A stretch of 64,000 nucleotides of DNA from an uncultured Pseudomonadota bacterium (GTDB lineage: Bacteria; Myxococcota_A; Polyangia; Fen-1088), in NCBI GenBank assembly GCA_963779495.1, contig CAVZYM010000005.1, positions 2,265,554 through 2,329,553 on the forward strand. Reading direction: 5' to 3'. The first letter of the stretch is position 1, and each line of letters begins with the position of its first letter. Under the pieces are notes generated by a model. It was not told the origin of the DNA. It searched no databases and saw only the letters and a program-made list of their open reading frames with translations. The position numbers and the translations under genes were made by a program. Positions 10,016-32,659 of this stretch are shown in pieces.

Positions 10016-10612
10016 TCACGCGGTGAGCGTCCCTTTGGTCGACGGCACGCCCTGCACGCGCGGGTCGATCCGGACGGCAGCCGCGGTGGCCCGCGCGAAC
10101 GCCTTGAACAGCGCCTCGATCATGTGGTGCGCGTTCTCACCGTAGCGCACCTCTAGGTGCAGGTTGCACAGCGCGGTCGACACGAAGCCGCCGAAGAACT
10201 CACGGCCGAGCTCCACGTCGAAGGTCCCGACGCGGCGCCCTTTCAGAGCCTCCGCCCGGTAGACGAAGGCCGCCCGGCCGCTGAAGTCGACCGCCGCCGC
10301 GACCAGCGTCTCGTCCATCGGGATCGTCGCCTCGCCGTAGCGCGTGATGCCGCTGCGGTCCCCCAGCGCCTCGCGAAAGGCCTGTCCCAGGCAGATGCCG
10401 ACGTCCTCGACCAGATGGTGGGGGTCGACTTCGACGTCACCCGAGGCCGTGATCTCCAGGTCGTAGAGGCCGTGGCGGGCGACCGCTTCCAACATGTGGT
10501 TGAAGAAGGGGACCGGGGTGGTGATCCGGCGCTGTCCCGACCCGTCCAGGATCAGGGCCAGCTCGATGGCGGTCTCGTTGGTCTTCCGTTGGACCTTGGC
10601 GCGTCGGTTCAT
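10016..10612 (-). CDS. hisB: imidazoleglycerol-phosphate dehydratase
   Basis: RKTNETAIELAL..PFFNHMLEAVARHG..DPHHLVEDVGICLG..GENAHHMIEALFKAFARA. Confidence 0.95.
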   Translation of the reverse strand: MNRRAKVQRKTNETAIELALILDGSGQRRITTPVPFFNHMLEAVARHGLYDLEITASGDVEVDPHHLVEDVGICLGQAFREALGDRSGITRYGEATIPMDETLVAAAVDFSGRAAFVYRAEALKGRRVGTFDVELGREFFGGFVSTALCNLHLEVRYGENAHHMIEALFKAFARATAAAVRIDPRVQGVPSTKGTLTA

Positions 10613-10703
10613 GTGCGGGTCAGGTAGGAGCCAGGCGACGATTGTATCCCACGTTCCTCAAGGAATCTCCGATGTTCAGCGATATACTGATGTGGACCAC
10701 GCG

Positions 10704-15494: not shown

Positions 15495-15555
15495 AGCTCG
15501 GAGCCCACGCCACGCAGATAGGCCGGTCGGCCGCGGGCGGCGCATAATCAACGTC

Positions 15556-16896
15556 ATGCTGCGGCGCGGAAGTCTCGGCCTTGCGCTGTCGCTGCTGGCC
15601 CACCTGGCCCTGGTCGTGATCCTGCTGGTGCGCGGAGGGGGCGGCTTCTCGGGCCCGATCGACATCGAGATGACGGGCGGCGTCCACCTGGAGGAGGTCA
15701 AGGACGTCCCGCTGGGCGCGCCGCAACCGGGTGACAAGGGCCAGGAGAAGGCGCGCAAGGCCCGAACCCGCGCGCCCCGCGTCGCCGCCGACGAGGGGAC
15801 CCTGGGGACGCGCCCCGACGACCAGGATCGCAAGGGAGCGGCGGCGACCGAGGACGACAGCGCGCCGGCCCCGACCAGCGACCTCGGCGCCTACGGACCG
15901 ACCGGCTCGCGGCTGACGGTGCTGCTGCGCCTCGACCGCCTGCGCGGGACCGACTACGCCGCGCCGATCGACGACCTGTTGATGCACCTGCCGGATCGCC
16001 GCTTCCTGCTGCAGGGGACGGGGCTGGAGCTGTTCACCGATTTCGACGCGCTGCTGGTCGCGACCCCCAACCCGCGCGATCCGACGGTGACGTTCGTGGT
16101 CGCCCGTCACCATCTGGAGGAGGAGGCCCTGCGCGCGGCGCTGAACCGCGGCGCGCGCGCCGGCGAGCGGCCGCTGACCTGGCGGGTGCAGTACGGCCGG
16201 CCGGTCGGCCAGCGCCGGGTGCGCAAGGTGGAACCCGACGCCACCCTACCGCCCGGCCTCGACGCGCGCGACGATCGTCTGGTCGTGCTGGCGGCGCCCA
16301 AGCTCGCGGTGGTCACGCCGCGCGCCTACCTGGACCTGATGTTCAAGCCCTCGCCCGCGCCCAACGGCCCGGGCGAGGCTGCGCCTGGTGGCGTGAGGCC
16401 GGCGGTCAACGAGGCCGCGCCCGGCAGCGAGGACCCGCAGAGCTCCCAGCGCGCCGGTGTCTGGGCCAACTTGCTCACCCGCATATCCGCCGACGAGGGG
16501 CTGATGCCGCCCGACGGCGTCGTCCTGATCCGCGCGGTCGACATGTGGAAGCCCGCCGGCACCCCCGGCGACGCGTCGCCCGTTCTCTACGGCATGGAGA
16601 TTCCGCAAGAGGTGAAGGGCTTCATCGCCGTCGAGGACGCCGCGCCCGTCCTCGACATCACCGGCACCTTCAAGACCGAGGCGCCCGCCCGCCACTGGGA
16701 GACCGTGTGGCCGGGGCTGCAGCGCAAGCTGCGGACGAACCCGTTCGTGATGCTGTCGGGCTTCTCCGGCGTCGTCGCCCGCGCCACGCTGGTGCGCGAG
16801 GGGGACGCTGTACGGCTGCGGCTCGGCGTCTCGCGCGACGAGGCGCTGCGCCTGCTGACGTTCGCGGTGCAGATGCTGACCAGCCGCGGTATGTGA
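15556..16896 (+). CDS. hypothetical membrane-anchored protein
   Basis: 446-aa ORF with an N-terminal TM segment (LGLALSLLAHLALVVILLV), a charged linker and a globular C-terminal region. I recognise no family. Confidence 0.55.
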   Translation: MLRRGSLGLALSLLAHLALVVILLVRGGGGFSGPIDIEMTGGVHLEEVKDVPLGAPQPGDKGQEKARKARTRAPRVAADEGTLGTRPDDQDRKGAAATEDDSAPAPTSDLGAYGPTGSRLTVLLRLDRLRGTDYAAPIDDLLMHLPDRRFLLQGTGLELFTDFDALLVATPNPRDPTVTFVVARHHLEEEALRAALNRGARAGERPLTWRVQYGRPVGQRRVRKVEPDATLPPGLDARDDRLVVLAAPKLAVVTPRAYLDLMFKPSPAPNGPGEAAPGGVRPAVNEAAPGSEDPQSSQRAGVWANLLTRISADEGLMPPDGVVLIRAVDMWKPAGTPGDASPVLYGMEIPQEVKGFIAVEDAAPVLDITGTFKTEAPARHWETVWPGLQRKLRTNPFVMLSGFSGVVARATLVREGDAVRLRLGVSRDEALRLLTFAVQMLTSRGM

Positions 16897-16974
16897 GCCA
16901 CCGCGATCCCGAAAAAGGGATCCGCCAGCGTCGCAACGGGCATATCGTGAGTGGCTTTTACGGAGGGCCCCCCG

Positions 16975-18204
16975 ATGCGATTCGCCTGGAAGCTTTGGTG
17001 TGTTGGCGCGCTGCTCGGTTCGAGCGTCCTCTTGGGCTGCGCAACGGGGGTGACCGACGATCCCACCGGGAACGGGGGGAGCACGGTCGGAAGCGCCGGC
17101 AGCGGCGGCACGTCGGGCGCGGCCGGCCAACCCGGGATCGCGGGTAGCTCCGGCGGCAGCTCCGGTGTCGCGGGCGCCGCGGGCGGCAGCTCAGGCGTCG
17201 CAGGGACCTCGGGGGGCGGCGGCGGCAGCACCGCGATCACCGGCATCGCCGGCAGCACGGGCGTCGCCGGGGCGGGGACCGGCGGAACGGCGGCCGGCGG
17301 GCAGGGCGGCACGGCGGGGCGTGGCGGCAGCGGCGTGGCGGGACGCGGCGGCAGCGGCGTGGCCGGCGGAAGTGGCGGCAGCGCGGCCGGCACCAGCGGC
17401 GGGGCCGGCGCCGGCGGCGGCGGAGACAAGGTCCCGGCCGATCCGAGCGCGGGCTGCGGCAAGGCGAATCCGGCCGTGGGCTCCTCGGGCAGCCCGCTGA
17501 CTGTCTCGAGCCACCAGTACTACGTGAAGCTGCCGACCGGCTACGACGCGAACAAACCGTACCCCGTCATCATGATGTTCAACCCGACCGGCAACCCGCT
17601 GAGCTGGGCCGAGCAGAGCGCCGGCTTCGAATCGAACGGCGCCAAGGCGGGCGCGATCCGCGTCTATCCGGGGCCGGCCAGCATGGCGAACGGCTGGGGC
17701 GCGGGTGACGTGTCGTTCTTCATGCCCCTCTACAGTCAGATCATCGGCGCCTACTGCGTCGACAAGGCGCGCGTCTTCGCCGCCGGCGAGAGCTCGGGCG
17801 GCGACTTCTCCAGCATCCTCGGCTGCGAGCACGCCGACGTGCTGCGCGCCGTCGCGCCCTGCGCGACGAAGGACGTGAGCGCCTATCCCCTCAACGCCAC
17901 GACGCGCAAGTGCACCGGCCAGGTCACCTCGGTCGTCATCCACGGCAAGAACGACAACGTCGTCGGCCCGGCGAACGGTCCCAAGACCCGCGACTTCTAC
18001 CTGGCGCTGAACCACTGCGGCACCACGAGCACGCCGGTGCAGGGCTACACCGACACGATGTCGAACTGCGTCCAGTACCAGGGGTGCGATGTGCCGTACC
18101 CGGTCTACTGGTGCTTGCACACCAATCCCGAGTACAGCGGCACGAACCACGGCTGGCCCCACTTCGCGGCCAACATGCTCTGGTCGCTGTGGTCGTCGTA
18201 CTGA
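16975..18204 (+). CDS. secreted lipoprotein esterase (PHB depolymerase / feruloyl esterase-like alpha/beta hydrolase) with a Gly-rich linker
   Basis: GGAGGG lies before ATG 16975. MRFAWKLWCVGALLGSSVLLGCA has a lipobox and is followed by about 130 aa of Gly-rich repeats. Then come YYVKLPTGYDANKPYPVIMMFNP and VFAAGESSGGDFSSILG (GxSxG nucleophile elbow). Confidence 0.65.
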   Translation: MRFAWKLWCVGALLGSSVLLGCATGVTDDPTGNGGSTVGSAGSGGTSGAAGQPGIAGSSGGSSGVAGAAGGSSGVAGTSGGGGGSTAITGIAGSTGVAGAGTGGTAAGGQGGTAGRGGSGVAGRGGSGVAGGSGGSAAGTSGGAGAGGGGDKVPADPSAGCGKANPAVGSSGSPLTVSSHQYYVKLPTGYDANKPYPVIMMFNPTGNPLSWAEQSAGFESNGAKAGAIRVYPGPASMANGWGAGDVSFFMPLYSQIIGAYCVDKARVFAAGESSGGDFSSILGCEHADVLRAVAPCATKDVSAYPLNATTRKCTGQVTSVVIHGKNDNVVGPANGPKTRDFYLALNHCGTTSTPVQGYTDTMSNCVQYQGCDVPYPVYWCLHTNPEYSGTNHGWPHFAANMLWSLWSSY

Positions 18205-19337: not shown

Positions 19338-19452
19338 CCGCGCCTCCGCGCCGAAAAAATCTCGGGGTTCCGCGAGGATGCTTTGCTTGACTATCCCGTT
19401 TCGCCGCCTCGCGTCGGAGTTTTTGCACAGACACGACCCGACAGGCGTCTTC

Positions 19453-22400
19453 ATGTCGGGAGGACTCCTGGGCATGGTCGCATTCAGGGTTGGTTCGGCT
19501 GTTGTGGTCGCTTCGCTGGTCGTCTTTTCCGGTTGTCGGGGCGGTGATCCGCCCGCGACTCCGACGAAAGGAGCGGCCATCCTGTCGGCTCTGCGCGGTA
19601 GACCGGGGTCGCCGTTCGCGGCGCGCGGGAAGGCGACATTCGACACGAGCGGCGGTGTCCTTCGGGCGCGGTTCGTGGAGAAGGACGCCGAGCCGACGCG
19701 CGCGCGGGTCACGCTGCCGATGCTGGCGAGCGCGGCGGTCCGGGTCGAGGACGCGGGCAGCGGCGCCGGCGTCGACGTCTCGCTGAGGGGGGCATCGTCT
19801 TCGTCGGCCCAGACGGTCGATGGACACGTCGTCTACCCGGAGGCCCTCGCCGGGGGCGCGACGCTGATCCAGCGGCCGCTCGCGAGCGGCGTCGAGGACT
19901 TCGTCAACTTCGAGACGCGCCCCGCGAAGCCGGAGCTGACGTACGACATCTCGCCCAGCAAGGGTGTCAGCGGGCTGCGCCTGGTGGACAACACGCTGGA
20001 GCTGCTCGACGCGGGCGGCGCGCCGCGCCTGCGCGTGGCGCCCCCCTACGTCGTCGGCGCGGACGGCGTCGAGACCGGCGCGATCCTGGCCGTCGAGGGG
20101 TGCGCCGTGGACAGCAATCCGTCGGCCCCCTGGGGGCGCGCGGTGACGGCGCCCGGCGCCACGCACTGCACGCTGCGCGTGCGCTGGCCGGAGTCGGTCG
20201 CCTATCCGGCGGTGGTCGACCCGCGCTGGACGACGACGGGGGCGATGATCACGGCGCGGCAGGAGCACACGGCCACGCTGCTTTCCACGGGCAAGGTGCT
20301 CGTGGTCGGCGGGCGGACCACGACCGGGACAGCGGCGCTCTCCAGCGCCGAGCTGTACGACCGGGCGACCGGGCTCTGGGCGGCCACGGGGAGCATTTCC
20401 GGCGCGCGGCGGCTGCACAGCGCGACGCAGCTCAACACGTCCTCGAATGCGACGACCAGCGGCAAGGTGCTGGTGGCGGGCGGCATCGACGGGACGAGCA
20501 CGCTGACGACCGCGCAGCTCTACTCGCCGACGGAAGGCACCTGGATCGCGGCGGGCAACCTGAACACGGGGCGCTATGCGCACACGGCGACACTGCTCGC
20601 CGGCAGCGCCGATGGGAAGGTGCTGCTCGCCGGCGGCGTGAGCGGCTCGACGACGCTGGCCACCGCGGCGATCTACAACCCGGCCTCGGGCGCCGGGGCG
20701 TTCGCGGCGACGACGGGGCCGCTCCCGCAGGGGGTGAAGGCGCACACCGCCACGCGACTCGCGACCGGCAACGCGCAGCTGAACAACAAAGTGCTGCTGG
20801 TCGGCGGCAACAACGGCTCGCTCTCGCTCTCCGCGGTCTATCTGTTCGACCCCACGTCGTCGGCCTTCAGCACGCTGGCGTCGCTCTCGACCCCGCGCGA
20901 GGGGCACACGGCGACGCTCCTGGCCGACGGCAAGCTGCTGGTGACAGGCGGCAAGAATGGGTCGACGACCCTGGCGACGACGCTCCAGTTCGACCCCGGC
21001 ACCGGGCCCGGGTCGTGGTCGACGAAGGGGAACCTGACGATCGCGCGCTGGGGGCACACGGCGACGCTGCTGCCGGCGACGGTCCTGGGGAACGGGCAGC
21101 TGCTGGTGGCGGGCGGAAACAGCGGCAGCGCGACGTTGTCGTCGTCGGAGCTCTACAGCGTTGCGCCCGGGACCTGGGCGCCGACGGCGGCGATGGCGGG
21201 GGCGGTGCAGGGGCACACGGCCACGTTGTTGCCCAGCAACATGGTCCTGCTGGCTGGCGGGCTCAGCGGGACGACCGTGCAGGGCGCGGCGCAGCTGTAC
21301 GACACGTCATCGGGCCTCGGGTGCAGCACCAACAGCCAGTGCGCCAGCGGCTTCTGCGTGAGCGGCGTCTGCTGCGACACCGCCTGCAACGGCGGCTGTG
21401 GCAGCTGCAACCTCGCGGGCTTTCCGGGGACGTGCAAGCCGCTCAGCAACACGACGGCCTGCCGCGCGTCGGCGGGCGCCTGCGACGTCGCCGAGACCTG
21501 CAACGGGACGTCGGTGGCCTGCCCGGCCGACGCATTCGCGGCGGCGACGGCGACCTGCCGCGGCGCGAACGGCGTGTGCGACGCGGCCGAGACCTGCACC
21601 GGCACGTCAGCGGCGTGCCCGGCTGATGCGCTCAAGCCGGCGAACACGGCCTGCACCGACGACGGCAACCTCTGCACGCAGGACAAGTGCAACGGCACGA
21701 GCGTGGCGTGCCAGCACCCGGCGGGGAACGCGGGAACGGTCTGCCGCGTCTCGGTCGGGTTGTGCGACGTGGCGGAGAGCTGCAACGGGACGTCGACCGC
21801 CTGCCCAACGGACGGGTTCGCGCCCGCGACGACGACGTGTCGTGGCGCCGCCGGCGAGTGCGACGTGGCCGAGATCTGCACCGGCACGTCCGCGGCATGT
21901 CCCGCCAACGCGCTGAAGCCGGCCAACACGCCCTGTACCGACGACGGCTTTGTCTGCACCCAGGACAAGTGCGACGGCACGATGACGGCGTGCCAGCACC
22001 CGGCGGGGAACCCAGGGACGGTTTGCCGTGCGGCGGACGGGTTGTGCGACGTGGCCGAGACCTGCACCGGTTCGGCGACCGCCTGCCCTGCGGATGGGTT
22101 CTTGCCCCCGACGACGACCTGCCGTCCGGTCGCCAGGGAGTGCGACGTGGCGGAGACGTGCACGGGGACGCAGCCGGTCTGCCCACCGGATGTGTCTGCC
22201 CCGAACGGCGCCCAGTGCAGTGACGGCAACGGCTGCACGTTGGCCGACACCTGCCAGTCGGGCAATTGTACGGCCGGCACTCCGGTGACCTGCACCGCGC
22301 AGGACCAGTGCCACGTCGCGGGTGTCTGCCAGGGATCGGGGACCTGCACCAATCCGGTCGTCGCCGACGGGACGCCGTGCACGGGTGGCCAGTGCGCCGC

Positions 22401-25400
22401 GGGGAGCTGCCAGTCGGGAACGCCGACGGGAAACCCGCCGACGCCAATCGACCCGACGGTCCCGCTCGACTTCCGGCAAGCCAACGCCTTCCTTTACGAG
22501 GGACCGAACGCCCAGCAGGTCGGCGTCGTGCCAGGAACAATCAAGCGAGCGCGCATCGGCGTTCTCCGCGGGCGTGTCACGGACGGACAAGGGCAACCGC
22601 TGTCTCAGGTCACCGTGCGGGTCGCCAGTCGTCCCGAATACGGAGCCACCCAGACCGCCGACGACGGCGTGTTCAGCTTGGCGGTCAACGGGGGCGAGCA
22701 GATACGCCTGGCCTACGACCGCGAGGGGTTCCTGCCCGTCCAAAGAACCGAGTTCGTGACCCCGCTCGACTACGGCTGGTTCCCCGACGTGACGATGACG
22801 GCGCTCGATTCCGCCCGGACAATCGTCGATCTCGGCGGTGGCTCTGGACCGCAGGTCGCGACCGCCACACCGACCTCGGATGCCAGTGGGCCGCGTCAGT
22901 CAATCGTTATCTTCCCGTCAGGCACCCAGGCGACCATCACCGAGAACGGCGGCGCGCCTCAACCGGCCACCACGCTGGCACTGCGTTCGACCGAGTACAC
23001 GGTGGGACCAGGGGGGCCTCAGGCCATGCCGGGGCCGCTGCCTCCGAGCTCCGGGTACACCTATGCCGTCGAGCTGAGCGTCGACGAGGCGCTGGGGCCG
23101 GGAACGCGGGTCGATTTCAACCGCCCCGTGATCAACTACGTCGACAACTTCCTGCATTTCCCGGTCGGCTCGCCCGTGCCTGTGGGCTACTACGACCGCG
23201 TCGCCGGAATGTGGGTCCCCGCCCCGAACGGGCGGGTGATCAGGGTCATCGAGAGCTTCGGCGGTTTCGCCGAGCTCGACACGGACGGGGACAGCGCACC
23301 AGATGACGCTTCCACGCTCGCGGCGTTGGGGATCGACGACGAAGAGCGCGCGACCCTGGCCACCCTCTACTTGCCCGGTCAGGACGTGTGGCGGGTGCCG
23401 GTGACGCACCTGACCCCTTGGGACTACAACTGGCCGTTGGCCCCGCCCGAGGACTTCGTGTACCCGGATGATCCCGATCCGCGGCCCAGGAACAAGCCGA
23501 CGGAGTCGAGCGACGGGCGTAAACCGCCCTGCGATGAGATTCAGGTCGGATCGTCGGTGGCTTGCAGCTCCCAAACGTTGAGTGAGGCCGTTCCCATCAC
23601 CGGAACGCCATTCTCACTCGTTTACACGACGTCGCGCTCTCCGGCATACGGTGCCGGGGCTGCTACGACAGACGTGAAGGTCAGTGGTCCGACGATTCCG
23701 GCCTCGGTCAAACGGATCGAAGTGTCCACGACCATCGCGGGGCGTCTGATTAAGCAAACATTCGCGCCGGCGCCCAACATCACGACTTCGGTGCCATGGG
23801 ATGGTCGCGACGCCTATGGCCGTGCTGTTACAGGCCGTCAGCCTGCCACGGTCAGCGTAACGTATGTTTACGGCGGCGTTTATAACCGTCCACTAGAAGA
23901 CGTGATCAGCTCGTTTGGGCGGTTTTCCGAGTTTCCCGAGATTCCGATCGATGGAGACCTCGGCCGAGGCGAGTTGTTTGCTCCGCACGTCGGCAAAACC
24001 ATGATCGAGCACCCGAATGCGTCGCTCGAGGAGGGCCTTGGAGGCTGGACGCTGGACGTCCACCACACCTACGACCCCCGAACGTTGACGTTGACCCGGG
24101 GCGACAACAAAAGACTCTCAGCCGATGCCCTCGGAGGCCGCGCCGCGGCGAACACGGCAAAGCTGTTAACCGAGGATGGCAGCATCGGCATCACCGACTT
24201 CCGTGTCACCAGCGACGGCAAAATATATACGGCCGGTTACGGCCGTATTCTGAGGATCGGGGATGATGGCGCCATCGAGGTTGTCGCGACTGATGTGGAG
24301 CCCACGTCCTTGGTGATCGCGGGTACGCGCGTATTCTTCTCCAATCAGCACGAATACCACGGCGGAGAAGCCCAATTAGTATACTGGCCAGGCCAGATCA
24401 AGGAACTGAAAGGGGATGGCAGCGTCGTGACACTGGCCGGGAGCACGAGGGAGGACTGCACTCCTCCGGACTATTACTCGAATCACGCCGCCCCGTTGTT
24501 CTTCGGCAATGAAGGTCCCGCGACGGACGCATGCTTGGAGAACATAAGGAGCGTAGGCGTCGCGCCCGACGGAACCATCTACGTGCTCGGCTACGTGTCC
24601 TTCCATTGGCAAATCCGGCGGATTACTTCCGACGGGATCATTCACGCGTTTTTGTCCGGAGGATTTCCGCAGGACGGTTCGACTGTGGACAAGCCGGGAT
24701 TCTTCGCCGGTGACCTGGCCATTTCTGGTGACTACTCAATGTACCTCAATGGCACCTATGCCACGGAAATTGACTTTGGCCGTTATCGGCCCTATCGAGG
24801 CGTGTTTCAGCGTCTGCTAACGAACGGCGCCGTGCAACCGGTGCTAACGATCGATTATCCGAACGGCAGCGCCAGCCTCTGCACCATCGACGAACTCACC
24901 AATGGCACCAGCGTGCCTCGTTGTCAGCCCAGTGCCGTGACGGTCGGGCCCGACGGACTCCTTTACGCTCAAACGAACGTGTCATTCAACGATCCGCGAT
25001 TCCCCGATTGGCCGCAGCACATGGCGAGAGTTGTGAGGATTCGCCCGGACGGCGTGCTGGCGGAAGCGTTCGCTGGCTTCAGCGACATGAACGTTTCAAA
25101 ATACACGATGTCGAGCGACGGCACGATCCTGATGATGGCGCGCCCATTCGCCGGACTCGGACGGGACGACAACCAGTATTGGGGAGCCCTTTCACTCTAC
25201 CGGCTCTACCCCAACCTCCCCTCCGTGTCGGACCAAGGATATCTCCTCCCGGCGAGCGACGGCAGCGAGATCTACTCATTCGACAACCGGGGACGCCACC
25301 TCCGCACGTACGACCGGACGGGGGCCGTCACGAAGCTTGAGTTTCAATATAACACCACCAACGGCCTTCTGACCGGCATCGCTGATCGGAATGGGCTGAC

Positions 25401-28293
25401 AACGACGATCGAGCGCGACGGCAGCGGTAAGCCGACCGCTATCGTTGCGCCCAACGGCCAACGAACGACACTCGCCGTGGACCCGAATGGATATCTCAGC
25501 TCCATCACGAGCCCCACCAACGCCATCGTGCAGTTCACGTACGTCAACGGCGCGATGACGCAGGAGATTGATGCCCGGAACGGAGTCCACCGGTTCACGT
25601 ACGATCCAGACGGAAGGCTCATCGTCGACCGCACGCCCACGACCGGTGAATGGACCTTCTCGCGTTCTCCGGATGGCTCGGTTGTCAGCTCGGCGAGCGC
25701 CGAAGGGGTCAACCATTCGTATGCTGTCAGCGAGCCGGTAGGCGCTTCCCAGCAAACGATCGTCGATGGCGCCGGTCTCACGTCGACGGTCCGTACCGAC
25801 GCTGCCGGGATGAGTCATGCCACGATGAGCAACGGCGTCGAGACGTTCACAAAGACCACTCCCGACCCTCGCTTCGGTGCGGCTGCGCCCTACGTCTCCC
25901 AAGAGTCCACCCGCACTCCGAGCGGACTGACGTCGATCACCAACATAAAGCGTCAGACGACTGTGTCTCCCGGCAATCCGCTCGTCATGACGGCACAGAC
26001 CCAAACGATCACCGTCAATGGGAAGACCACGACCGTGGCCTACGACGGGACGGCTCTGGAAACGCTGGTCACGTCGCCCGCGGGGAGGCAGACCGTCTAT
26101 CGCACGGACGACCATGGGCGGCTCGTCTATCTCCGGCGAGGAACCCTCGCTCCCGTCTCGTTGGCCTACGACGGACAGGGACGGCGGGTCGGCAGCCAGA
26201 TTGGTACGGGCAGCGACATCCGGACAACCACGGTGACCTACGATCCGCAGAGTCGTCCGGACTCCGTCACCGACGCGTCGTCGAGGATCAGCCACCTGAC
26301 CTATGACGCGGGCAATCGGTTGACTTCGATCGCGCGGGGCGGCGGTCTTCCGCTCAGCTTCTCGTACAACGGGGCCGACGATCTGGTGTCCCTCACCCCG
26401 CCTGGGGGCAGCGCTTTTACGTTCGGCTTTACGGCGGCAGGGGACACCGCCTCTTACTCGGTCCCTGGCGTCGGCGGCGAAAATCCGACGACCGGATTCG
26501 AGTTCGATCTCGATCGACGACTGACCCGGATCATCAACCCCGCGGGGACCCAGGCCGTCTTTGGCTATGAACCCGTAACCGGCAGGATCGCGAGCATCAC
26601 CTACGCCCGGGACGCCGGCGTGGCGGCGGCGGGAAATGTGACCGCGTCGATCGTGTACGCTCCGACAACAGGCAACGTACAGACGATCGCCGTCACCGAT
26701 GGTCCCCAGCTGACCTTCCAGTACGACGGACCGCTTCTGCTCTCGACGACCTGGTCCGGTTCCATCGCGGGAAGCATCAGCCACAGCTATGACAGCGACT
26801 TTCGCGTCATCAGCCAGAGCGTGAACGGAGGCAATACGGTCTCTTTCAGCTACGATGCCGATGGCTTGCCGACGGCTCTCGGCGACCTGACGCTGACGCG
26901 CGACATTCCGAATGGGTTCGTGACCGATTCGACTCTGGGTGGCGTCACCGATCACACGGCGTACACGATGTTCGGCGAGGTCCGAGACTATGAGGTCCGG
27001 CACGCGGGGCAGCCGCTGTACCACGCCGACTACCAGGCGCGAGACGCGCTCGGTCGGATCGAGACGAAGGTGGAAACGATCCAGGGCGTCACGACCACCT
27101 GGAGCTACGGGTACGACGACGCTGGCCGACTCTCTCAGGTCATGAAGGATGGCACCGTGACCGCGTCATACGGGTACGACGCCAAGGGGAACCGGACGAG
27201 CGGCCCGGCCCTGCCGACGGCGCCCGTCTACGACGTTCAGGACAGGCTGCTCAGCTATGGACACTGGGCCTTCACCTACACCGCCGGCGGAGATCTATCG
27301 ACCAAGACGGATACGAACAGCGGCGCAGTGACGAGGTACCACTACGACAGCGCCGGCGCGCTCCGCGAGGTCCGGCTGCCGGATGGTCGTTTGATCGAAT
27401 ATGTCATCGATGCCGCCGGCCGCCGTGCCGGGAAGAAGGTTGACGGGGTGCTGGTGAAGGGGTGGCTCTACGGCGAAGATGATCTGACGGTCGTCGCAGA
27501 GTTGGACGGGAGCGGCGGCGTCGTGAGCCGGTTCGTCGACAACCGCTATTTCGTCCGCGGTGGCGCGACCTACCGTGTCGTCACGGACGAAATCGGCACC
27601 GTCCGTCTGGTGGTGGATGTCGCGACGGGGGCGGTGGCGCAACGCCTCGACTACGATGAGTTCGGTAATGTCCTGCAGGACACGTCGCCCGGGTTCCAGC
27701 CGCTGGGGTTTGGCGGGGGCCACTACGATCCCGACACCGGACTCGTGCGCTTCAGGGCGCGGGACTACGATCCGACCGTGGGACGATGGACGGCGAGGGA
27801 TCCCATCATGTTCGAAAGTGGGGAGGCGCTTCTCTACGCGTACGTGGGAAACGACCCCGTGAACCATGTCGATCCGACCGGTCTCGTGAAGTTGGAGCTC
27901 AACAGGGCTACCGGCGAGTTGCTCGTTGACCCGGAACGGCCGGGCGCGGACCCCTATGTTCTCGGGGCCGATTCGGGCAAGGAGAAGTGCCGGAACAATC
28001 CGCTATGCGAGAGAAAAAAGGACCAGGGCCCCACGCCCAGAGGGGATTACCACTTCAAGCCGAGTGGAATAAAGCCGTCGCCCAGCGACGGTCGAGACTG
28101 GGGCCCTTGGCGCGTCAGGCTGACGCCGGATTCCGGGACCAATACCTTCGGTCGTGACAGGTTCTACCTCCACGGGGGGAAGACGCCGGGCACGAGCGGG
28201 TGCATCCAAATCAACCGAGAGATGGACCTGGAGCGGCTCAGATTCGAGCTTGAGTCGGATCCGGACGACTACGTACCATTGTTAGTGCGGTGA
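19453..28293 (+). CDS. Rhs/YD-repeat polymorphic toxin with teneurin-like architecture and a lipoprotein-type signal
   Basis: One uninterrupted frame. MSGGLLGMVAFRVGSAVVVASLVVFSGC starts at ATG 19453. It contains Kelch blades, Cys-rich repeats, TTR/FN-plug (WRVPVTHLTPWDYNWP), an NHL-like propeller, about 2 kb of YD repeats, an RHS core ending DPVNHVDPTGL, and then a 135-aa C-terminal domain. Confidence 0.9.
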   Translation: MSGGLLGMVAFRVGSAVVVASLVVFSGCRGGDPPATPTKGAAILSALRGRPGSPFAARGKATFDTSGGVLRARFVEKDAEPTRARVTLPMLASAAVRVEDAGSGAGVDVSLRGASSSSAQTVDGHVVYPEALAGGATLIQRPLASGVEDFVNFETRPAKPELTYDISPSKGVSGLRLVDNTLELLDAGGAPRLRVAPPYVVGADGVETGAILAVEGCAVDSNPSAPWGRAVTAPGATHCTLRVRWPESVAYPAVVDPRWTTTGAMITARQEHTATLLSTGKVLVVGGRTTTGTAALSSAELYDRATGLWAATGSISGARRLHSATQLNTSSNATTSGKVLVAGGIDGTSTLTTAQLYSPTEGTWIAAGNLNTGRYAHTATLLAGSADGKVLLAGGVSGSTTLATAAIYNPASGAGAFAATTGPLPQGVKAHTATRLATGNAQLNNKVLLVGGNNGSLSLSAVYLFDPTSSAFSTLASLSTPREGHTATLLADGKLLVTGGKNGSTTLATTLQFDPGTGPGSWSTKGNLTIARWGHTATLLPATVLGNGQLLVAGGNSGSATLSSSELYSVAPGTWAPTAAMAGAVQGHTATLLPSNMVLLAGGLSGTTVQGAAQLYDTSSGLGCSTNSQCASGFCVSGVCCDTACNGGCGSCNLAGFPGTCKPLSNTTACRASAGACDVAETCNGTSVACPADAFAAATATCRGANGVCDAAETCTGTSAACPADALKPANTACTDDGNLCTQDKCNGTSVACQHPAGNAGTVCRVSVGLCDVAESCNGTSTACPTDGFAPATTTCRGAAGECDVAEICTGTSAACPANALKPANTPCTDDGFVCTQDKCDGTMTACQHPAGNPGTVCRAADGLCDVAETCTGSATACPADGFLPPTTTCRPVARECDVAETCTGTQPVCPPDVSAPNGAQCSDGNGCTLADTCQSGNCTAGTPVTCTAQDQCHVAGVCQGSGTCTNPVVADGTPCTGGQCAAGSCQSGTPTGNPPTPIDPTVPLDFRQANAFLYEGPNAQQVGVVPGTIKRARIGVLRGRVTDGQGQPLSQVTVRVASRPEYGATQTADDGVFSLAVNGGEQIRLAYDREGFLPVQRTEFVTPLDYGWFPDVTMTALDSARTIVDLGGGSGPQVATATPTSDASGPRQSIVIFPSGTQATITENGGAPQPATTLALRSTEYTVGPGGPQAMPGPLPPSSGYTYAVELSVDEALGPGTRVDFNRPVINYVDNFLHFPVGSPVPVGYYDRVAGMWVPAPNGRVIRVIESFGGFAELDTDGDSAPDDASTLAALGIDDEERATLATLYLPGQDVWRVPVTHLTPWDYNWPLAPPEDFVYPDDPDPRPRNKPTESSDGRKPPCDEIQVGSSVACSSQTLSEAVPITGTPFSLVYTTSRSPAYGAGAATTDVKVSGPTIPASVKRIEVSTTIAGRLIKQTFAPAPNITTSVPWDGRDAYGRAVTGRQPATVSVTYVYGGVYNRPLEDVISSFGRFSEFPEIPIDGDLGRGELFAPHVGKTMIEHPNASLEEGLGGWTLDVHHTYDPRTLTLTRGDNKRLSADALGGRAAANTAKLLTEDGSIGITDFRVTSDGKIYTAGYGRILRIGDDGAIEVVATDVEPTSLVIAGTRVFFSNQHEYHGGEAQLVYWPGQIKELKGDGSVVTLAGSTREDCTPPDYYSNHAAPLFFGNEGPATDACLENIRSVGVAPDGTIYVLGYVSFHWQIRRITSDGIIHAFLSGGFPQDGSTVDKPGFFAGDLAISGDYSMYLNGTYATEIDFGRYRPYRGVFQRLLTNGAVQPVLTIDYPNGSASLCTIDELTNGTSVPRCQPSAVTVGPDGLLYAQTNVSFNDPRFPDWPQHMARVVRIRPDGVLAEAFAGFSDMNVSKYTMSSDGTILMMARPFAGLGRDDNQYWGALSLYRLYPNLPSVSDQGYLLPASDGSEIYSFDNRGRHLRTYDRTGAVTKLEFQYNTTNGLLTGIADRNGLTTTIERDGSGKPTAIVAPNGQRTTLAVDPNGYLSSITSPTNAIVQFTYVNGAMTQEIDARNGVHRFTYDPDGRLIVDRTPTTGEWTFSRSPDGSVVSSASAEGVNHSYAVSEPVGASQQTIVDGAGLTSTVRTDAAGMSHATMSNGVETFTKTTPDPRFGAAAPYVSQESTRTPSGLTSITNIKRQTTVSPGNPLVMTAQTQTITVNGKTTTVAYDGTALETLVTSPAGRQTVYRTDDHGRLVYLRRGTLAPVSLAYDGQGRRVGSQIGTGSDIRTTTVTYDPQSRPDSVTDASSRISHLTYDAGNRLTSIARGGGLPLSFSYNGADDLVSLTPPGGSAFTFGFTAAGDTASYSVPGVGGENPTTGFEFDLDRRLTRIINPAGTQAVFGYEPVTGRIASITYARDAGVAAAGNVTASIVYAPTTGNVQTIAVTDGPQLTFQYDGPLLLSTTWSGSIAGSISHSYDSDFRVISQSVNGGNTVSFSYDADGLPTALGDLTLTRDIPNGFVTDSTLGGVTDHTAYTMFGEVRDYEVRHAGQPLYHADYQARDALGRIETKVETIQGVTTTWSYGYDDAGRLSQVMKDGTVTASYGYDAKGNRTSGPALPTAPVYDVQDRLLSYGHWAFTYTAGGDLSTKTDTNSGAVTRYHYDSAGALREVRLPDGRLIEYVIDAAGRRAGKKVDGVLVKGWLYGEDDLTVVAELDGSGGVVSRFVDNRYFVRGGATYRVVTDEIGTVRLVVDVATGAVAQRLDYDEFGNVLQDTSPGFQPLGFGGGHYDPDTGLVRFRARDYDPTVGRWTARDPIMFESGEALLYAYVGNDPVNHVDPTGLVKLELNRATGELLVDPERPGADPYVLGADSGKEKCRNNPLCERKKDQGPTPRGDYHFKPSGIKPSPSDGRDWGPWRVRLTPDSGTNTFGRDRFYLHGGKTPGTSGCIQINREMDLERLRFELESDPDDYVPLLVR
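20224..21310 (+). other. Kelch-type beta-propeller region of the Rhs protein (seven blades)
   Basis: Seven units of the form R-x-x-HTATLL-x(2-10)-GKVLVxGG-x-G-x(6-10)-ELY/IY-x-P-x-x-G-x-W. Confidence 0.75.
21316..22420 (+). repeat. Cys-rich repeat region of the Rhs protein, including about 2.4 copies of a 282-nt (94-aa) super-repeat
   Basis: CRxxxGxCDVAExCxGTSxACPxD modules. The super-repeat copies start at 21460, 21742 and 22024, an exact 282-nt period. Confidence 0.8.
22552..23440 (+). other. carboxypeptidase-regulatory (TTR)-like domain plus FN-plug-like region, as in teneurins
   Basis: RIGVLRGRVTDGQGQPLSQVTVRV...DDGVFSLAVNGG, then MPGPLPPSSGYTYAVELSVDEA, NFLHFPVGSPVPVGYYDRVAGMWVPAPNGRVI and LYLPGQDVWRVPVTHLTPWDYNWP. 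Confidence 0.7.
27335..27885 (+). other. RHS repeat-associated core domain ending at the predicted autoproteolysis motif
   Basis: RLDYDEFGNVLQDTSPGFQPLGFGGGHYDPDTGLVRFRARDYDPTVGRWTARDPIMFESGEALLYAYVGNDPVNHVDPTGL. Confidence 0.85.
27886..28293 (+). other. C-terminal toxin domain, Tlde1/DUF2778-like (L,D-transpeptidase/YkuD fold)
   Basis: 135 aa follow DPTGL. GPTPRGDYHF...WRVRLTP...FGRDRFYLHGGKTPGTSGCIQINREMDLERL matches the H-x(n)-S-x-GC catalytic pattern of YkuD-fold enzymes and the GPxPxGxY lead-in of DUF2778. Confidence 0.55.
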
Positions 28294-29183
28294 TGATCGC
28301 GCTCGCCCTCCTCGTGATGGGGACGGTTTCGCCCGGGCGGTCCGGCCCGGGCCACGTGGCTCCGATTGTGGGCGCACTGGAAGACGTGGAGGTAGCGGGC
28401 CGCGAGGAGGGCCACCTCGCCCGCCGGGTGAGGACGCTGTTCCGGTACGACGGCCACAAATGGATGGCCTACCCGCACCGTCCTCGGGACCAGCGAGAGC
28501 TCCGGGGCCTCGCAGGCAAGTTCCCGCCTTCGGTCTCCTGGACCATCTGCCATGATGGGAAGGCGCTGGGTGTCGTCGTGGGTCGCGCGAGCCGGCGATG
28601 GGGCTTCTACGGTCAAGTCGGCCTTCAGGAGCCGATTCCCGATTCAGTCGCGCCCAGCGTGGGCGAGCCGAGCCGGCGGTTTGCAGGGGACTCCGAGCTT
28701 CCCGTGCACCATCCGCTCGTGGCGACCACGGGACGGTGTCGGCTGGACGGATGGGCCTTGGTTCCTAGCCTGCCGAAGGAAGTTCAGGATCGCGTGATCG
28801 CCGCGCTCCCGGATCCGGGAGCGTCGCAGAGACGCGTCACCAGCTACGCTTGGCCCGCGTCGTACCGCGGCCCCGAGGGGAGTTGGATCGTCGAGGTCCA
28901 TCGTTCCGTGCCGCGTCTCACCGAACGCCGCGTGGTCTTCGTCGGCCCCGAGGGGACCACTGTGGCCGCCGGTGAGCCGGGCAGCCATGTCGGACTTTCG
29001 GATGACACGGGACCGCTGGCGCCCGGAAGAATCAGTCCTCAGTTGATCGTCGATATCGGCGACTGGAACGGTGATGGCAAGAGCGAGGTCTTGACGAAGT
29101 TCGAGCGGGATAACCTCGAGGGATACATCCTGCTCTCCAGCTCGGGCCAAGCGCTGGCGACCTTCGACTGGAACTATCACTAG
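28290..29183 (+). CDS. candidate cognate immunity protein (secreted, FG-GAP-like C-terminal motif)
   Basis: GTG 28290 or ATG 28293 overlaps the Rhs stop (GTGATGA). The N-terminus MMIALALLVMGTVSPG is hydrophobic. The C-terminus DIGDWNGDGKSEVL is an FG-GAP/VCBS-like Ca-binding motif. GC is as low as in the 3' part of the Rhs gene. Confidence 0.55.
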   Translation: MMIALALLVMGTVSPGRSGPGHVAPIVGALEDVEVAGREEGHLARRVRTLFRYDGHKWMAYPHRPRDQRELRGLAGKFPPSVSWTICHDGKALGVVVGRASRRWGFYGQVGLQEPIPDSVAPSVGEPSRRFAGDSELPVHHPLVATTGRCRLDGWALVPSLPKEVQDRVIAALPDPGASQRRVTSYAWPASYRGPEGSWIVEVHRSVPRLTERRVVFVGPEGTTVAAGEPGSHVGLSDDTGPLAPGRISPQLIVDIGDWNGDGKSEVLTKFERDNLEGYILLSSSGQALATFDWNYH

Positions 29184-29338: not shown

Positions 29339-29650
29339 ATGACGACCCGCATGAAGACTTGGACCTATACGATGTTCGCCGCGCTGCTCTTCACCTTCGG
29401 CGCCGCGGCCGGCGCGGGCTGCGACGCGGTCGAAACCGCGTTCGACTGCGATCAGGTCTGCGCGCGTTACCAGAACTGCTTCGATGGCGACTACGACGTC
29501 GGTGCCTGTCGCAGCCGGTGCCGCGATCGCGCGGCCAACGACGACAGCGTCCGGCAGGCCGCCGACACCTGTGAGGACTGCATCGACGACATGTCCTGCG
29601 CCTCGGCGACGTTCAACTGCGGCGCCAGCTGCAGCAACATCGTTCCGTAA
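29339..29650 (+). CDS. small Cys-rich lipoprotein
   Basis: GAAGGAG lies 6 nt before the ATG. MKTWTYTMFAALLFTFGAAAGAGC has a lipobox. There are 11 Cys in 103 aa. Confidence 0.6.
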   Translation: MTTRMKTWTYTMFAALLFTFGAAAGAGCDAVETAFDCDQVCARYQNCFDGDYDVGACRSRCRDRAANDDSVRQAADTCEDCIDDMSCASATFNCGASCSNIVP

Positions 29651-29665: not shown

Positions 29666-32659
29666 TCAGCGCGGCGCAGGCGGTTTGCCGGGCGCCGCCG
29701 CCGGCGGCTTTCCCGCTGCACCCGGCACAAGCGGCTTCGCTCCCGGCGCGGCCGCCCCCGGCCGCATCGGCCCGGCGCCCTTGCCGGCGCCCGGGCCGAT
29801 GCCCTTGGCCGCGTCGTCCGCCTGCACCTCTTCCATCGTCGTGCGCAGCGTGCCGCCGGTGTCGTCGGGCTTCACGCCGGGGGGGCGCGACCAGGGGACC
29901 GGTTGCAGCGGCTGGCCGGCGGTGACCTCGCTGATGTAGCGGGCGAACATCGGCACCGTCAGCATGAAGGCGGCGTCCTTGTGGCCCAGCGGGCGCTCGC
30001 GCAGGTCGTCGCCGATCCAGGTCGATGTCATCCAGCGCGAGGTGTAGCCGATGAACCAGGTGTCCATCGTCGCGCTGGACGTGCCGGTCTTGCCCGGCCG
30101 CCGGGATGCCGGCGCTGCGGATCGCGGGGGCGTGGCCGCGCGTCACCACGTGGCGCAGCAGCGTCGACGTCAGCCAGGCGGTGCGCGGCGGGATGACCGG
30201 CTTCGGCTTGCTGCCGGTCAACGACCACCAGGCGATCGAGCCGCTCGCCCTGGCGTCCCGAAGGGATCGCCTGGCACCGTGTTGTCCTCCAGATCACGAC
30301 GCCGGTGCGGTCGCGCACGCGGCGGATGTAGACCGGGTCGATCAGCACGCCGTTGCGGGCGAAGGCCGAGAACGAGCGGGTCAGCTCGTCGATGCGCGTG
30401 CACGACGCGCCCAGCGCCAGCGCCTGGTCGGGGATGATCTGGGTGGTGATCCCCAGCCGCCGCGCCCAGGCCTCGACCTCGCTTGCCGCCCACCAGCTTG
30501 AACAGCTGCACCGACGGGACGTTCTTCGACCAGATCAGCGCGTACTCCAGCGTCACCTGGTACTCGACGGTGTTGTTCAGGTTGGTGGGCGTCCAGACCT
30601 CGCCCGTGATCGGATCGACCTCGGCGCGCGGGACGTCGTTCAGCAGCGAGTCGAAGCCGTAGCCCTTGTCCAGCGCCAGCGAGTAGTACATCGGCTTGTA
30701 GACCGACCCGGGCTGGCGGCAGGCCTGCGAGCACGCGGTTGAACTCCGAGCGGTCGTAGTCGTCGCCGCCGACCATCGCCACCACGTAGCCGGTGCCGTG
30801 GTCGTAGCTGAAGATCGCCCCCTGCACGCGCGGCGTCTGCTCCAGCGTCAGCGTGATCGCCTGGCGCTTGGCGTGGTGGGCGCTCGCGGTGCGCCCGGCT
30901 TCTTCGGGGCCGCCTCGTCGAAGGCCGGCAGCCACTGCACCTCGTTCTTGGCGTCGTAGGTCCAGTCGGAGAAGCGGCGCCGCTTCGTCTGGTGGCGCGT
31001 TCTTCACCCAGATCGACGTCGCCGACGCGGAGCACGCCGACCGCCGTGTCGAGCAGGCGGCCGTTGGTGGAGTCCTTGGCGCTGTAGGGGACCGCCCAGA
31101 GCATCGTGCTCGGGCGGAATCACGTAGGCGTGCGTGCCGACGCGCACCTTCGCGCCGCCGGTCGGCGAGCACGGCCTCGACCAGGCCCAGGTAGAGGCGC
31201 CCCTCGACCGGCGGGTCGTTCGCCGTAGCGGGCGGCGGCGCGGCGGCGGAACTCGTCGGCGGCGGCGCCCCGTCAGGCGCGCCACCGGACCGCGCCAGCC
31301 CTGGCGCTTGTCCAGCTTGCGCAGCGAGAAGTCGACGTTCTCCTGGCCGGCGATGTCGATCCAGGGGACGACCGTGGTCTCGATCGTCATCCCCGCCTCG
31401 ACAGCGTCTTGTCGCCGTAGCGGCGGGCGATGTCGCGGCGCACGTGCTCGGTGAAGTAGGGGGTGGTGCTCGCGGAAGAAGTCGGGGCGCTGGCGGACGA
31501 CCACGGGGCGGGCGCGCCAGCGGTTGGCCTCGTCGTCGGTCAGCATGTCCGTCGCCACCATCGCCGCCAGCACCTGATCGCGGCGGGCCCGCGCCGCCTC
31601 CAGGTTCGTCAGCGGCGAGAAGCGCGAGGGCGCGCGGGCGAGGCCCGCGAGCAGCGCCATCTCGCCCAGGTCCAGCTCGCCGACCGGCTTGTCGAAGTAG
31701 CGGCGGGCGGCCGCCGCCACGCCGTAGGCGCCGTGGCCGAGGAAGATCTGGTTCAGGTAGAGCGTCAGGATGTCGTGCTTCGGAAAGCGCGACTCCAGAC
31801 GCCGCGCCAGGATCGCCTCGCGGATCTTGCGCTGGATCGTCCGCTCCGACGTCAGGAACGACTTCGCCACCTGCTGGGTGATCGTCGAGCCGCCCTGCGC
31901 CACCTCGCCGGCGCGCAGGTTGGCCCCCAGCGCGCGCGCGATGCCGCGGTAGTCGAGGCCGCCGTGCTCGTAGAAGCGGCGATCCTCGGCCGAGATGAAC
32001 GCCTGCACCAGCTGGGGCGGGAACTGGTCGAACGACAGGATCTCGCGCCGCTCGTTGGCCAGCTCGGCCAGCGGCGTGCCGTCCCAGCCGCGCACGACCG
32101 TCGTGGTGGCGGCGACCTTGTGATAGGTCGCGATGTCGGGCAGCGCCGGCAGCGTGGTCGCGAAGTGCAGGTAGGTGAAGAAGCCGGCGATCCCCAGGAT
32201 GCCCAGCACGCAGAGCAGACCGAAGGCGTAGAACTTCAGCAGCCAGTGGATGAAGCCGCCGTCGGACGGGTTCATCACCTCGACGACGGGCGGGCCGCCG
32301 CCGGGCGGGCCCCCGCCGGACGGGCCGCCGCCCGACGGGCTGGGAGGCGGTGTCGGCAGTTCCGGAGGCGGTGTCAGCGTCTCCGGAGGTGGTGTCGCCA
32401 TTGCGGGAGGCGGTGTCGGCAGCTCCGGCGGCGGCGTCGGCAGCTCTGGCGGCGGTGTCGGCGGGTCCGCGGGCGTCATCGTCGCCGGGCTCGCCGGCGT
32501 CGCCGGGCGCGGCGGTGTCGGCAGGCCCGGCAGGGTCGCCAGGCGCGGCCGTGGCGCCGGGCGCGGCGGTGTCGCCGGTGGAGACGGCGTCGCCGGGGAA
32601 GTCGGAGGTGGGGGGAGCCGCACGTCGCCGGGCGGTGGGGGCGGCGGCTTCTGCGCCAT
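29666..32659 (-). pseudogene. mrcA: penicillin-binding protein 1A (transglycosylase/transpeptidase), frame broken at least seven times (possibly an artefact)
   Basis: After a Pro-rich N-terminus and a TM segment come FISAEDRRFYEHGGLD, GGSTITQQVAK and RKIREAILARRLE (the GT51 domain). The transpeptidase part is scattered over three frames: GAIFSYDHGTGYVVAMVGG, PGSVYKPMYYSLALDKG, LEYALIWSKNVPSV, TGTSSATMDTWFIGYTS. One compensated pair is near 31395/31465, where the alternative frame reads TTPYFTEHVRRDIARRYGDKTL. Confidence 0.8.
32344..32469. repeat. 6 x 21-nt tandem repeat encoding the (E/T)LPTPPP heptads of the PBP1A N-terminus
   Basis: Units ggaggcggtgtcggcagttcc / ggaggcggtgtcagcgtctcc / ... 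read directly from the sequence. Confidence 0.8.

Follow-up and report, generated by a model that had tools for sequence, protein, structure and literature searches.

A lipobox-bearing teneurin-like protein with a Kelch and Cys-rich head, a predicted Tlde1-type toxin and a probable immunity gene in a Polyangia-like Myxococcota genome

Bacterial teneurin-like proteins (TLPs), to which the neuronal teneurin receptors trace their ancestry, were described by Raoelijaona et al. (Nat Commun 2026, February 2026, PMC13018210), the source of the Protein Data Bank (PDB) entries 9PT5 and 9IFO. They are defined by an FN-plug, an NHL propeller and a YD shell, and were found in 139 genomes and in more than 20% of Myxococcota species. 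Their N-terminal adhesion modules are variable, a TIP domain is present in 96% of them, and SEC/SPII lipoprotein signals are predicted for the Gram-negative ones, Myxococcota members included (PMC13018210). In BiTLP, from Bacillus inaquosorum, two autoproteolytic cuts were established by experiment, at G723/S724 and after L2144, together with the residues R2103, D2116 and D2140. The domain at the C-terminus (CTD) is caged, polymorphic and about 15 kDa in size, with an immunity gene downstream. No delivery machinery was found associated with the family, toxin delivery is an acknowledged open question, and a signalling role was left open (PMC13018210). Here we describe a TLP gene at 19453..28293 on the + strand of the window, by which we mean the whole 64-kb stretch of contig CAVZYM010000005.1 that was analysed.

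Other described systems also bear on this gene. The large signal-peptide Rhs proteins Rhs4 and Rhs5 of Myxococcus xanthus still kill when outer-membrane exchange (OME) and type VI secretion (T6SS) are both inactivated (review PMC10433427). OME is a generic transfer route for outer-membrane lipoproteins and is the one that SitA toxins take (PMC5562445). Tlde1a of Salmonella is an L,D-carboxypeptidase/transpeptidase on peptidoglycan with a periplasmic target, and is a T6SS effector (PMC9638812).

Judged by its sequence, the 2,946-residue protein is a bacterial TLP, a lipobox-bearing teneurin-like shell with a C-terminal toxin. A search of PDB sequences gives E = 2e-270 against BiTLP (9PT5 and 9IFO, both titled teneurin-like protein) over residues 997-1612 and 1917-2815, and on this match we place it in the family; animal teneurins follow at E of about 1e-56, and T6SS Rhs cocoons at about 1e-18. 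The YD shell, the FN-plug, the NHL propeller, the Rhs core with the G/S site, and a small polymorphic CTD with an immunity gene next to it are all recognizable. The + strand open reading frame (ORF) runs over 19378..28293 with no interruption, and translation from ATG 19453 spans 2,946 codons. In the public annotation the same protein (P0001) starts at ATG 19474 and has 2,939 aa, 100% identical. The mature protein is the same from either start, and residues are numbered throughout from ATG 19453. The window has a G+C content of 67-78%. The core and the toxin are laid out as follows.

22546..22797, + strand, aa 1032-1115: teneurin-type TTR domain (Pfam TTR_TEN1-4, 63.3 bits; CarboxypepD_reg, 28 bits)
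22798..23457, + strand, aa ~1116-1335: TIP-like insert between TTR and FN-plug (BiTLP alignment)
23458..23889, + strand, aa ~1336-1479: FN-plug (Pfam FN-plug_TEN1-4, BiTLP alignment)
23890..25257, + strand, aa 1480-1935: divergent NHL-type β-propeller (sub-threshold Pfam match, AlphaFold2 model with Foldseek)
25258..27885, + strand, aa 1936-2811: YD-repeat shell and Rhs core aspartyl-protease motif (Pfam, NCBIfam, 9PT5)
27886..28293, + strand, aa 2812-2946: C-terminal toxin of 135 aa, Tlde1-type L,D-transpeptidase-like (Pfam PF10908)

The 292-aa stretch from the TTR domain to the Pfam FN-plug has no Pfam model and aligns strongly to residues ~462-690 of BiTLP 9PT5. It contains the motifs PPSSGYTYAVELSVDEA, YYDRVAGMWVP and WRVPVTHLTPWDYNWP at aa ~1197-1328, which align with BiTLP residues ~560-690. 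The bacteria-specific TIP insert of PMC13018210 is the most likely identity of this region; the text of that paper describes the TIP without coordinates or boundaries. An earlier sequence-only reading of this DNA had taken the same motifs for an FN-plug signature, but they lie upstream of the Pfam FN-plug_TEN1-4 match, which is at aa 1408-1474 and scores 32.0 bits against a cut-off of 27.8, with the BiTLP alignment contiguous through the plug. Within the plug, an N-terminal autoproteolysis site is predicted at G1366/S1367 (nucleotides 23548-23553), with Cys1360 nearby, aligning to G723/S724 of BiTLP.

The propeller is the divergent part of the core. Pfam TEN_NHL scores 25.3 bits on it, just below the cut-off of 27.1, and other TLPs are 24-32% identical to it in their NHL regions. 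The AlphaFold2 model, built from an alignment of 11 sequences, has a predicted local distance difference test (pLDDT) score of 67.8, and Foldseek with this model finds teneurin chains as 8 of its 10 best matches, at E from 6e-12 to 4e-9, with classical NHL propellers next. The shell is found by Pfam TEN_YD-shell at aa 1936-2784 with 87.5 bits, RHS_repeat also being matched, and the 9PT5 domain alignment over aa 1917-2815 has E = 3e-133. NCBIfam Rhs_assc_core covers aa 2734-2811, where R2770, D2783 and D2807 are present and cleavage is predicted after DPVNHVDPTGL2811; the spacing of R2770, D2783, D2807 and L2811 is identical to that of BiTLP R2103, D2116, D2140 and L2144.

Apart from the placing of the plug motifs, the outline drawn in the sequence-only reading agrees with what the searches find: a single unbroken 2946-codon frame, an N-terminal lipoprotein signal ending VVFSGC, seven Kelch blades with a Cys-rich array, a TTR domain, an NHL-like propeller, and YD repeats with an RHS core ending DPVNHVDPTGL and followed by a toxin. 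Its larger claim of a complete teneurin-like scaffold is borne out by the domain map from hidden Markov models and by the 9PT5/9IFO match. The type of the toxin, with its predicted periplasmic action, and the probable immunity gene were absent from it and are identified here.

The Tlde1_dom family (PF10908) matches the isolated CTD at aa 2839-2942 with 52.5 bits against a cut-off of 30.1 (E = 8e-14), and YkuD matches at 21 bits. The motif is FYLH2907GGKTPGTSGC2917I, and the spacing of 10 residues from H2907 to C2917 equals that of H121 and C131 in Tlde1a. An exhaustive HMMER search of representatives with the CTD finds 1,058 relatives at E ≤ 1e-3, many of them C-terminal within long proteins of Rhs or TLP type, where a word-index search had returned no relatives. 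The motif R..F[FY]LHGG...G[ST]xGC[IV], with H-x9-C spacing, occurs in 136 of 150 sequences, these being P0001 and the 149 other matches listed. The CTD alone has no significant match among PDB sequences and no match in PADLOC. With a Tlde1-type family assignment and an intact His/Cys motif, the predicted action of the CTD should be on periplasmic peptidoglycan.

Downstream of the toxin two ORFs were considered.

28290..29183, + strand: probable cognate immunity gene, 297 aa (coupling to the toxin, conserved pairing)
29339..29650, + strand: small lipoprotein ORF of 103 aa, rich in Cys (12 in all), with lipobox AGAGC (G+C at third codon positions, GC3, of 0.885)

The first begins at a GTG, with an overlap of 4 nt at the toxin stop, and the annotation of the source genome includes it (P0121, 100%). 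The N-terminus of its product is hydrophobic and signal-like, the C-terminal part contains a DWNGDGKxE motif, and two homologues were found at 51-52% identity. One of them (P0122, 52%) is encoded on an independent metagenome contig (L069), 5 nt downstream of the end of a gene with TEN_YD-shell and Tlde1_dom, and the Rhs core and CTD of that gene are 57% identical to those of our TLP. The other (P0123, 51%) is an orphan on three metagenome contigs (L070-L072), with no toxin upstream and a BON-domain gene adjoining. Read by eye, the hydrophobic signal-like N-terminus is in P0121, P0122 and P0123 alike, and hence a periplasmic immunity protein fits. We conclude from the coupling and the pairing that ORF 28290..29183 is probably the cognate immunity gene. 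Neither Pfam nor PADLOC has a family that matches it, and judged against these two collections it would represent an immunity protein family previously undescribed. Two relatives at 44-45% identity, P0002 and P0005, keep the chassis and have other CTDs, with an overlapping gene of 141-142 aa, different in each case, behind them, and this exchange of CTD with downstream gene is the classic polymorphic-toxin pattern.

The second ORF was set aside as an immunity candidate, only ORF 28290..29183 being kept beside a homologous toxin. It has no family match in Pfam, NCBIfam or PADLOC and no counterpart downstream of the L069 pair, and whether it is part of the toxin module is uncertain.

In front of the teneurin-like core is the leader and a head of three parts.

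19453..19536, + strand, aa 1-28: type II (lipoprotein) signal peptide (translation, PS51257 core)
19537..20253, + strand, aa 29-267: conserved N-domain, all-β (homologues, AlphaFold2 model)
20254..21327, + strand, aa 268-625: Kelch β-propeller with seven sequence repeats (Pfam, motif count, PDB Kelch matches)
21328..22437, + strand, aa 626-995: Cys-rich repeat array, disintegrin-like (Pfam Disintegrin, counts)

The leader, ..VVASLVVFSGC, matches the lipobox core of PROSITE PS51257, and with the 19474 start it also has the Lys or Arg that the rule calls for within the first seven residues. The lipobox VFSG/C puts the lipid on Cys28 (Cys21 counted from the 19474 start), giving a mature N-terminus of C-R-G-G-D-P-P. 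Of the residues in the M. xanthus sorting rule taken from PMC5562445, neither Lys at +2 nor Ala at +7 is present. A census of the leaders of 91 N-domain proteins found a lipobox at the same place in 49 and an obvious lipobox with a truncated start in 5 more; 19 have a hydrophobic leader with no lipobox, and 18 have no called leader.

The N-domain has two invariant Cys in the homologue alignment (CAVD..PWGR..C), and its AlphaFold2 model has a pLDDT score of 88.9. The N-terminal 267 aa match no Pfam family at E ≤ 10 and nothing in PADLOC, and Foldseek with the N-domain model finds nothing at E ≤ 1e-3, the top entry being the N-terminal β-sandwich of a GH92 mannosidase at E = 3.6e-3 with a template modeling score of 0.36. 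A PAAR, VgrG or TcB-like N-terminus is rejected, there being no Pfam, NCBIfam or PADLOC match in aa 1-267 and no such fold in the model. The Kelch region is matched at aa 268-620 by Pfam Kelch_1, Kelch_3, Kelch_4 and Kelch_6 and by Beta-prop_ATRN-LZTR1, with E of about 1e-24, and direct counting gives seven H[TS]AT repeats. Also by direct count, the array has 51 Cys within aa 626-995 and six CDxAExC units; Pfam Disintegrin matches it in 5 stretches at E = 6e-21, and a PDB sequence search with it has no significant match.

A further question is how the toxin reaches its target. Genome content for the T6SS, TraAB and Tc was judged from the window, and Pfam and NCBIfam scans of ~46 ORFs across it found no T6SS, Tc (TcA), PAAR, VgrG or WXG component. 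The neighborhoods of four relatives, which often have integrases or insertion sequence elements, also have no PAAR, VgrG, T6SS, TcA or WXG component. By Pfam, our TLP has no SpvB, TcdB_mid or FG-GAP, all of which are present in other proteins sharing the head. The sequence-only reading had already reported the want of a delivery partner in the window, and this observation stands. The puzzle it drew from this is a real one, though not a new one, being the known open question of the family (PMC13018210).

The best explanation, to which we would give a probability of about 0.6, is that the gene encodes a Sec-exported, lipid-anchored polymorphic-toxin TLP of a Polyangia-like Myxococcota genome, with its own immunity gene and with surface-displayed, contact-dependent delivery. 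Sec would export the precursor, which would be lipidated at the Cys of the lipobox and then taken to the outer membrane. The head would project from the anchor and is probably the adhesion or targeting part, while the TTR/TIP/FN-plug/NHL/YD core, by homology to the solved BiTLP structure, should form a closed cocoon. Judging from the conserved residues, the Rhs aspartyl-protease motif would cut after L2811 and a second cut would fall at G1366/S1367, and with these two predicted cuts the 135-aa toxin would be free but caged. Contact with a neighboring Gram-negative cell would then release the toxin into the target periplasm, where Tlde1-type L,D-carboxy/transpeptidase activity, expected from the family membership and the intact His and Cys, would corrupt the stem peptides of peptidoglycan. 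The producer would be protected by the product of ORF 28290..29183, whose pairing with the toxin is observed and whose place of action is presumably the periplasm. Delivery would proceed without a T6SS, a Tc-A component or a type VII secretion system, most likely by a surface-displayed contact route like that proposed for M. xanthus Rhs4 and Rhs5. We favor surface display because Rhs4 and Rhs5 kill without OME and the T6SS, OME being generic for lipoproteins.

Several points weigh against this explanation. The residue at +2 after the lipid Cys is Arg, chemically near to the Lys that serves as the inner-membrane retention signal in M. xanthus. The lipobox is missing in 19 of the ~73 head-bearing relatives with a leader (~26%), so lipid anchoring in the outer membrane is not universal. 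The evidence for surface exposure of TLPs is, according to PMC13018210, purely bioinformatic. Local assembly quality is imperfect, since neighboring genes are frameshifted. Lastly, the CTD has Ser (TSGC) at the position two before the Cys (C-2), where Tlde1a has His129, so that the (S/T)HGC motif is not there. Of the 136 motif-bearing sequences, 107 have Ala at C-2, 4 have Ser and 2 have His; the Tlde1-like subfamily here departs from the canonical Tlde1a motif, and with Ala in 107 of 136 the Ser is probably no defect.

The main rival is membrane fusion, in which a periplasm-facing outer-membrane lipoprotein is passed on by TraAB-dependent OME or by vesicle fusion, and the cocoon lands in the recipient periplasm. 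This is attractive because a periplasm-facing lipoprotein with a periplasm-acting toxin needs no translocation step; the lipobox is there, the predicted target of the toxin is periplasmic, OME is generic for outer-membrane lipoproteins with SitA as the precedent (PMC5562445), and neither the window nor the surroundings of the four relatives show any other machinery. Yet the antagonism of Rhs4 and Rhs5 persists without OME and the T6SS (PMC10433427), and SitA orthologues are confined to traAB-bearing species, and no traA or traB candidate was seen in the 64-kb window. The large Kelch and Cys-rich head resembles an outward-facing adhesin, the ~26% of leader-bearing head relatives without a lipobox do not fit, and TLPs with the same core are found in Gram-positives and in many phyla without OME, both in our genome scan and in PMC13018210. 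We therefore regard fusion as unlikely. The sequence-only reading had offered myxobacterial OME of the SitA type as a candidate route, and it keeps a place on those terms, but Rhs4/Rhs5 (PMC10433427) and the relatives without a lipobox turn us toward surface display.

The protein might instead be an adhesion or recognition receptor like the metazoan teneurins, its CTD toxin being vestigial or secondary. The elaborate and conserved head with its adhesion-type folds speaks for this, as do the signalling role left open in PMC13018210 and the motility and predation phenotypes of an M. xanthus rhs mutant (PMC10433427). A receptor of this kind looks improbable with an intact toxin motif, two intact protease sites and an immunity gene that is conserved and translationally coupled. 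Moreover, pairs of CTD and immunity gene are swapped among close relatives, and such swapping is the mark of an arms race in progress.

The protein could also be the cargo of a T6SS, or of a translocator like Tc-A, whose genes lie in another part of the genome; in favor of this, the T6SS is the route of most Gram-negative Rhs toxins that have been characterised. Although the first description of Tlde1 was as a T6SS effector (PMC9638812) and the view is limited to 64 kb of the genome, such cargo is very improbable, because a protein with a Sec/SPII leader cannot be loaded onto VgrG/PAAR in the cytoplasm, the TLP has no PAAR, VgrG-binding or SpvB/TcdB domain, its relatives are without such neighbors, and PMC13018210 associates no machinery with the family.

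The head has a distribution of its own. The N-domain is in ~90 of the best 120 database matches, at 45-69% identity, always after a leader and before Kelch. By approximate counts, read from a table of precomputed Pfam lists, the chassis behind it is TLP-type in ~10, SpvB with TcdB_mid, FG-GAP and YD shell (a fused TcB/TcC-like protein) in ~50, and VWA with Big_1 and YD shell in ~10, while some lack an Rhs part altogether. Cultivable relatives with a Kelch-headed TLP include Cystobacter fuscus and Archangium gephyra (P0014, P0019 and P0020). Two of the giant proteins with the head, P0002 of TLP type and P0026 of VWA type, have a small PilZ-domain gene divergently upstream (L073 7856-8200 and L076 9253-9588, respectively); no PilZ-domain gene was seen in the window.

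Base composition changes within the gene. The head (aa 1-995) has a GC3 of 0.89-0.95, like host housekeeping genes; from the FN-plug through the CTD the value is 0.68-0.79, and for ORF 28290..29183 it is 0.79. Since GC3 falls inside the gene, the cassette of core, toxin and immunity gene would be younger in the genome than the head, which suggests cassette swapping behind a resident head. As a tentative extension, about which we have real doubt, the leader, N-domain, Kelch and Cys-rich array might be a portable export and targeting module that is placed on at least three Polyangia-type myxobacterial cocoons (teneurin-like, TcB/TcC-like and VWA-Big-YD) and on non-Rhs proteins, amounting to a lineage-wide delivery platform independent of T6SS/TcA, with the GC3 contrast recording a recent cassette swap. 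If so, with a periplasm-acting toxin the head platform would need to breach only the outer membrane of the target.

The rest of the window has genes for histidine, for proline and for sulphur assimilation, PBP1A and RecD2, a RomY-type regulator, and several ORFs without a family match. Divergent from the TLP gene, with ~160 bp between, is a Ser/Thr protein kinase gene (18211-~19290, - strand), whose product has a membrane segment at its C-terminus. Upstream of the TLP gene, on its strand, are three ORFs (14460-18204, + strand) encoding a lipoprotein without a family, a membrane-anchored protein without a family, and a lipoprotein with an esterase domain; the third has a long Gly/Ser/Ala linker, and its domain is polyhydroxyalkanoate-depolymerase-like, by an NCBIfam score of 64.5 bits that is below the cut-off. 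A protein with the RomY N-terminal domain is encoded at 10494-11702 (+ strand, 86.7 bits), and, RomY-type proteins being a Myxococcota marker, it supports a Myxococcota origin of the window. A 1,217-aa ORF at 55011-58664 (+ strand) has coding-like GC3 and no Pfam or NCBIfam match.

On the other side of the TLP gene, PBP1A (29666-32659, - strand) and RecD2 helicase (32750-34937, + strand) each extend across at least three reading frames. The GC3 frame-plot switches at about 30020, 30200, 30440, 30680, 33620, 34040 and 34190, and the PBP1A transglycosylase domain is intact at 31004-32659. These frame changes may be either pseudogenes or assembly indels; many related metagenome-assembled genomes (MAGs) stem from long-read projects. 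The 8.8-kb TLP frame beside them is intact.

A scan of genome contigs, the source genome not among them, yields 68 TLP loci (L001-L068), whose cores align from query residue ~1000 to 2811. The MAGs in which such cores occur include ones labeled Verrucomicrobiota, Chloroflexota, Nitrospirota, Scalinduaceae, Campylobacteraceae, Binatia, Schekmanbacteria and Fibrobacteres, and by MAG labels the spread of lineages exceeds the six phyla listed in PMC13018210. None of these 68 loci has a Tlde1 CTD, and none has a homologue of ORF 28290..29183 or ORF 29339..29650.

The architecture, the SPII signals in Myxococcota and the absence of delivery machinery are already published (PMC13018210) and are not new, and the overall picture of the TLP family is unchanged by this member. 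New here are a myxobacterial TLP with a Kelch and Cys-rich head, its Tlde1-type toxin, a new candidate immunity family, and a head shared across chassis; in the main text of PMC13018210 and the supplements consulted, Kelch, Tlde1 and transpeptidase are not mentioned. This TLP offers handles on the delivery question. With a predicted periplasmic peptidoglycan toxin the problem would be narrowed to one membrane, and there are a new candidate immunity family and, in the head found on several cocoons, a candidate delivery or targeting determinant.

Among known systems, the TcB-TcC cocoons of Tc toxins and the T6SS Rhs effectors (PDB IDs: 8H8A, 7Q97 and 8QJC) share with this protein a YD-repeat cocoon, the Rhs core motif, and a C-terminal toxin that is enclosed and freed by autoproteolysis. 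They differ in that the TLP here is without SpvB, TcdB_mid, an FG-GAP gate, or a PAAR or VgrG adaptor, has the FN-plug/NHL kind of plug seen in teneurins, and has no TcA partner in the window. SitA (PMC5562445) resembles it in the N-terminal lipobox, the polymorphic C-terminal toxin with an adjacent immunity gene, and the myxobacterial host. SitA, however, is not described as Rhs-type, has no cocoon and mostly has nuclease toxins; it is often preceded by sitB and is restricted to traAB-bearing species.

Tlde1/Tldi1 of Salmonella (PMC9638812) has the same toxin family, the same His/Cys spacing and a periplasmic peptidoglycan target. Tlde1 is free T6SS cargo, whereas the domain here would be the caged C-terminus of a Sec-exported Rhs/TLP protein, and the C-2 residue is His there, Ser here and Ala in most of the subfamily. 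For the Tldi1 side of the pair, the immunity protein here was set against the Pfam and PADLOC families, without a match. Rhs4 and Rhs5 of M. xanthus (PMC10433427) are alike, by their published description, as giant myxobacterial Rhs proteins with signal sequences that are independent of T6SS and OME and are presumed to be surface-displayed and contact-dependent. They are on the Mx-alpha prophage, in contrast to the TLP gene here, which is among housekeeping genes.

With BiTLP and the TLPs the likeness is the superfold of TTR, a TIP-like insert, FN-plug, NHL, YD shell and Rhs core with both autoproteolysis sites conserved, together with a polymorphic CTD of ~15 kDa, an immunity gene immediately downstream, and SPII as predicted for Myxococcota TLPs. 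The NHL propeller here is unusually divergent, and the head is an N-domain with Kelch and a Cys-rich array in place of BIG/S-layer-type modules. The CTD is of the Tlde1 type, predicted to be a peptidoglycan enzyme, where that of BiTLP is a membrane-active peptide and that of MfTLP an ADP-ribosyltransferase.

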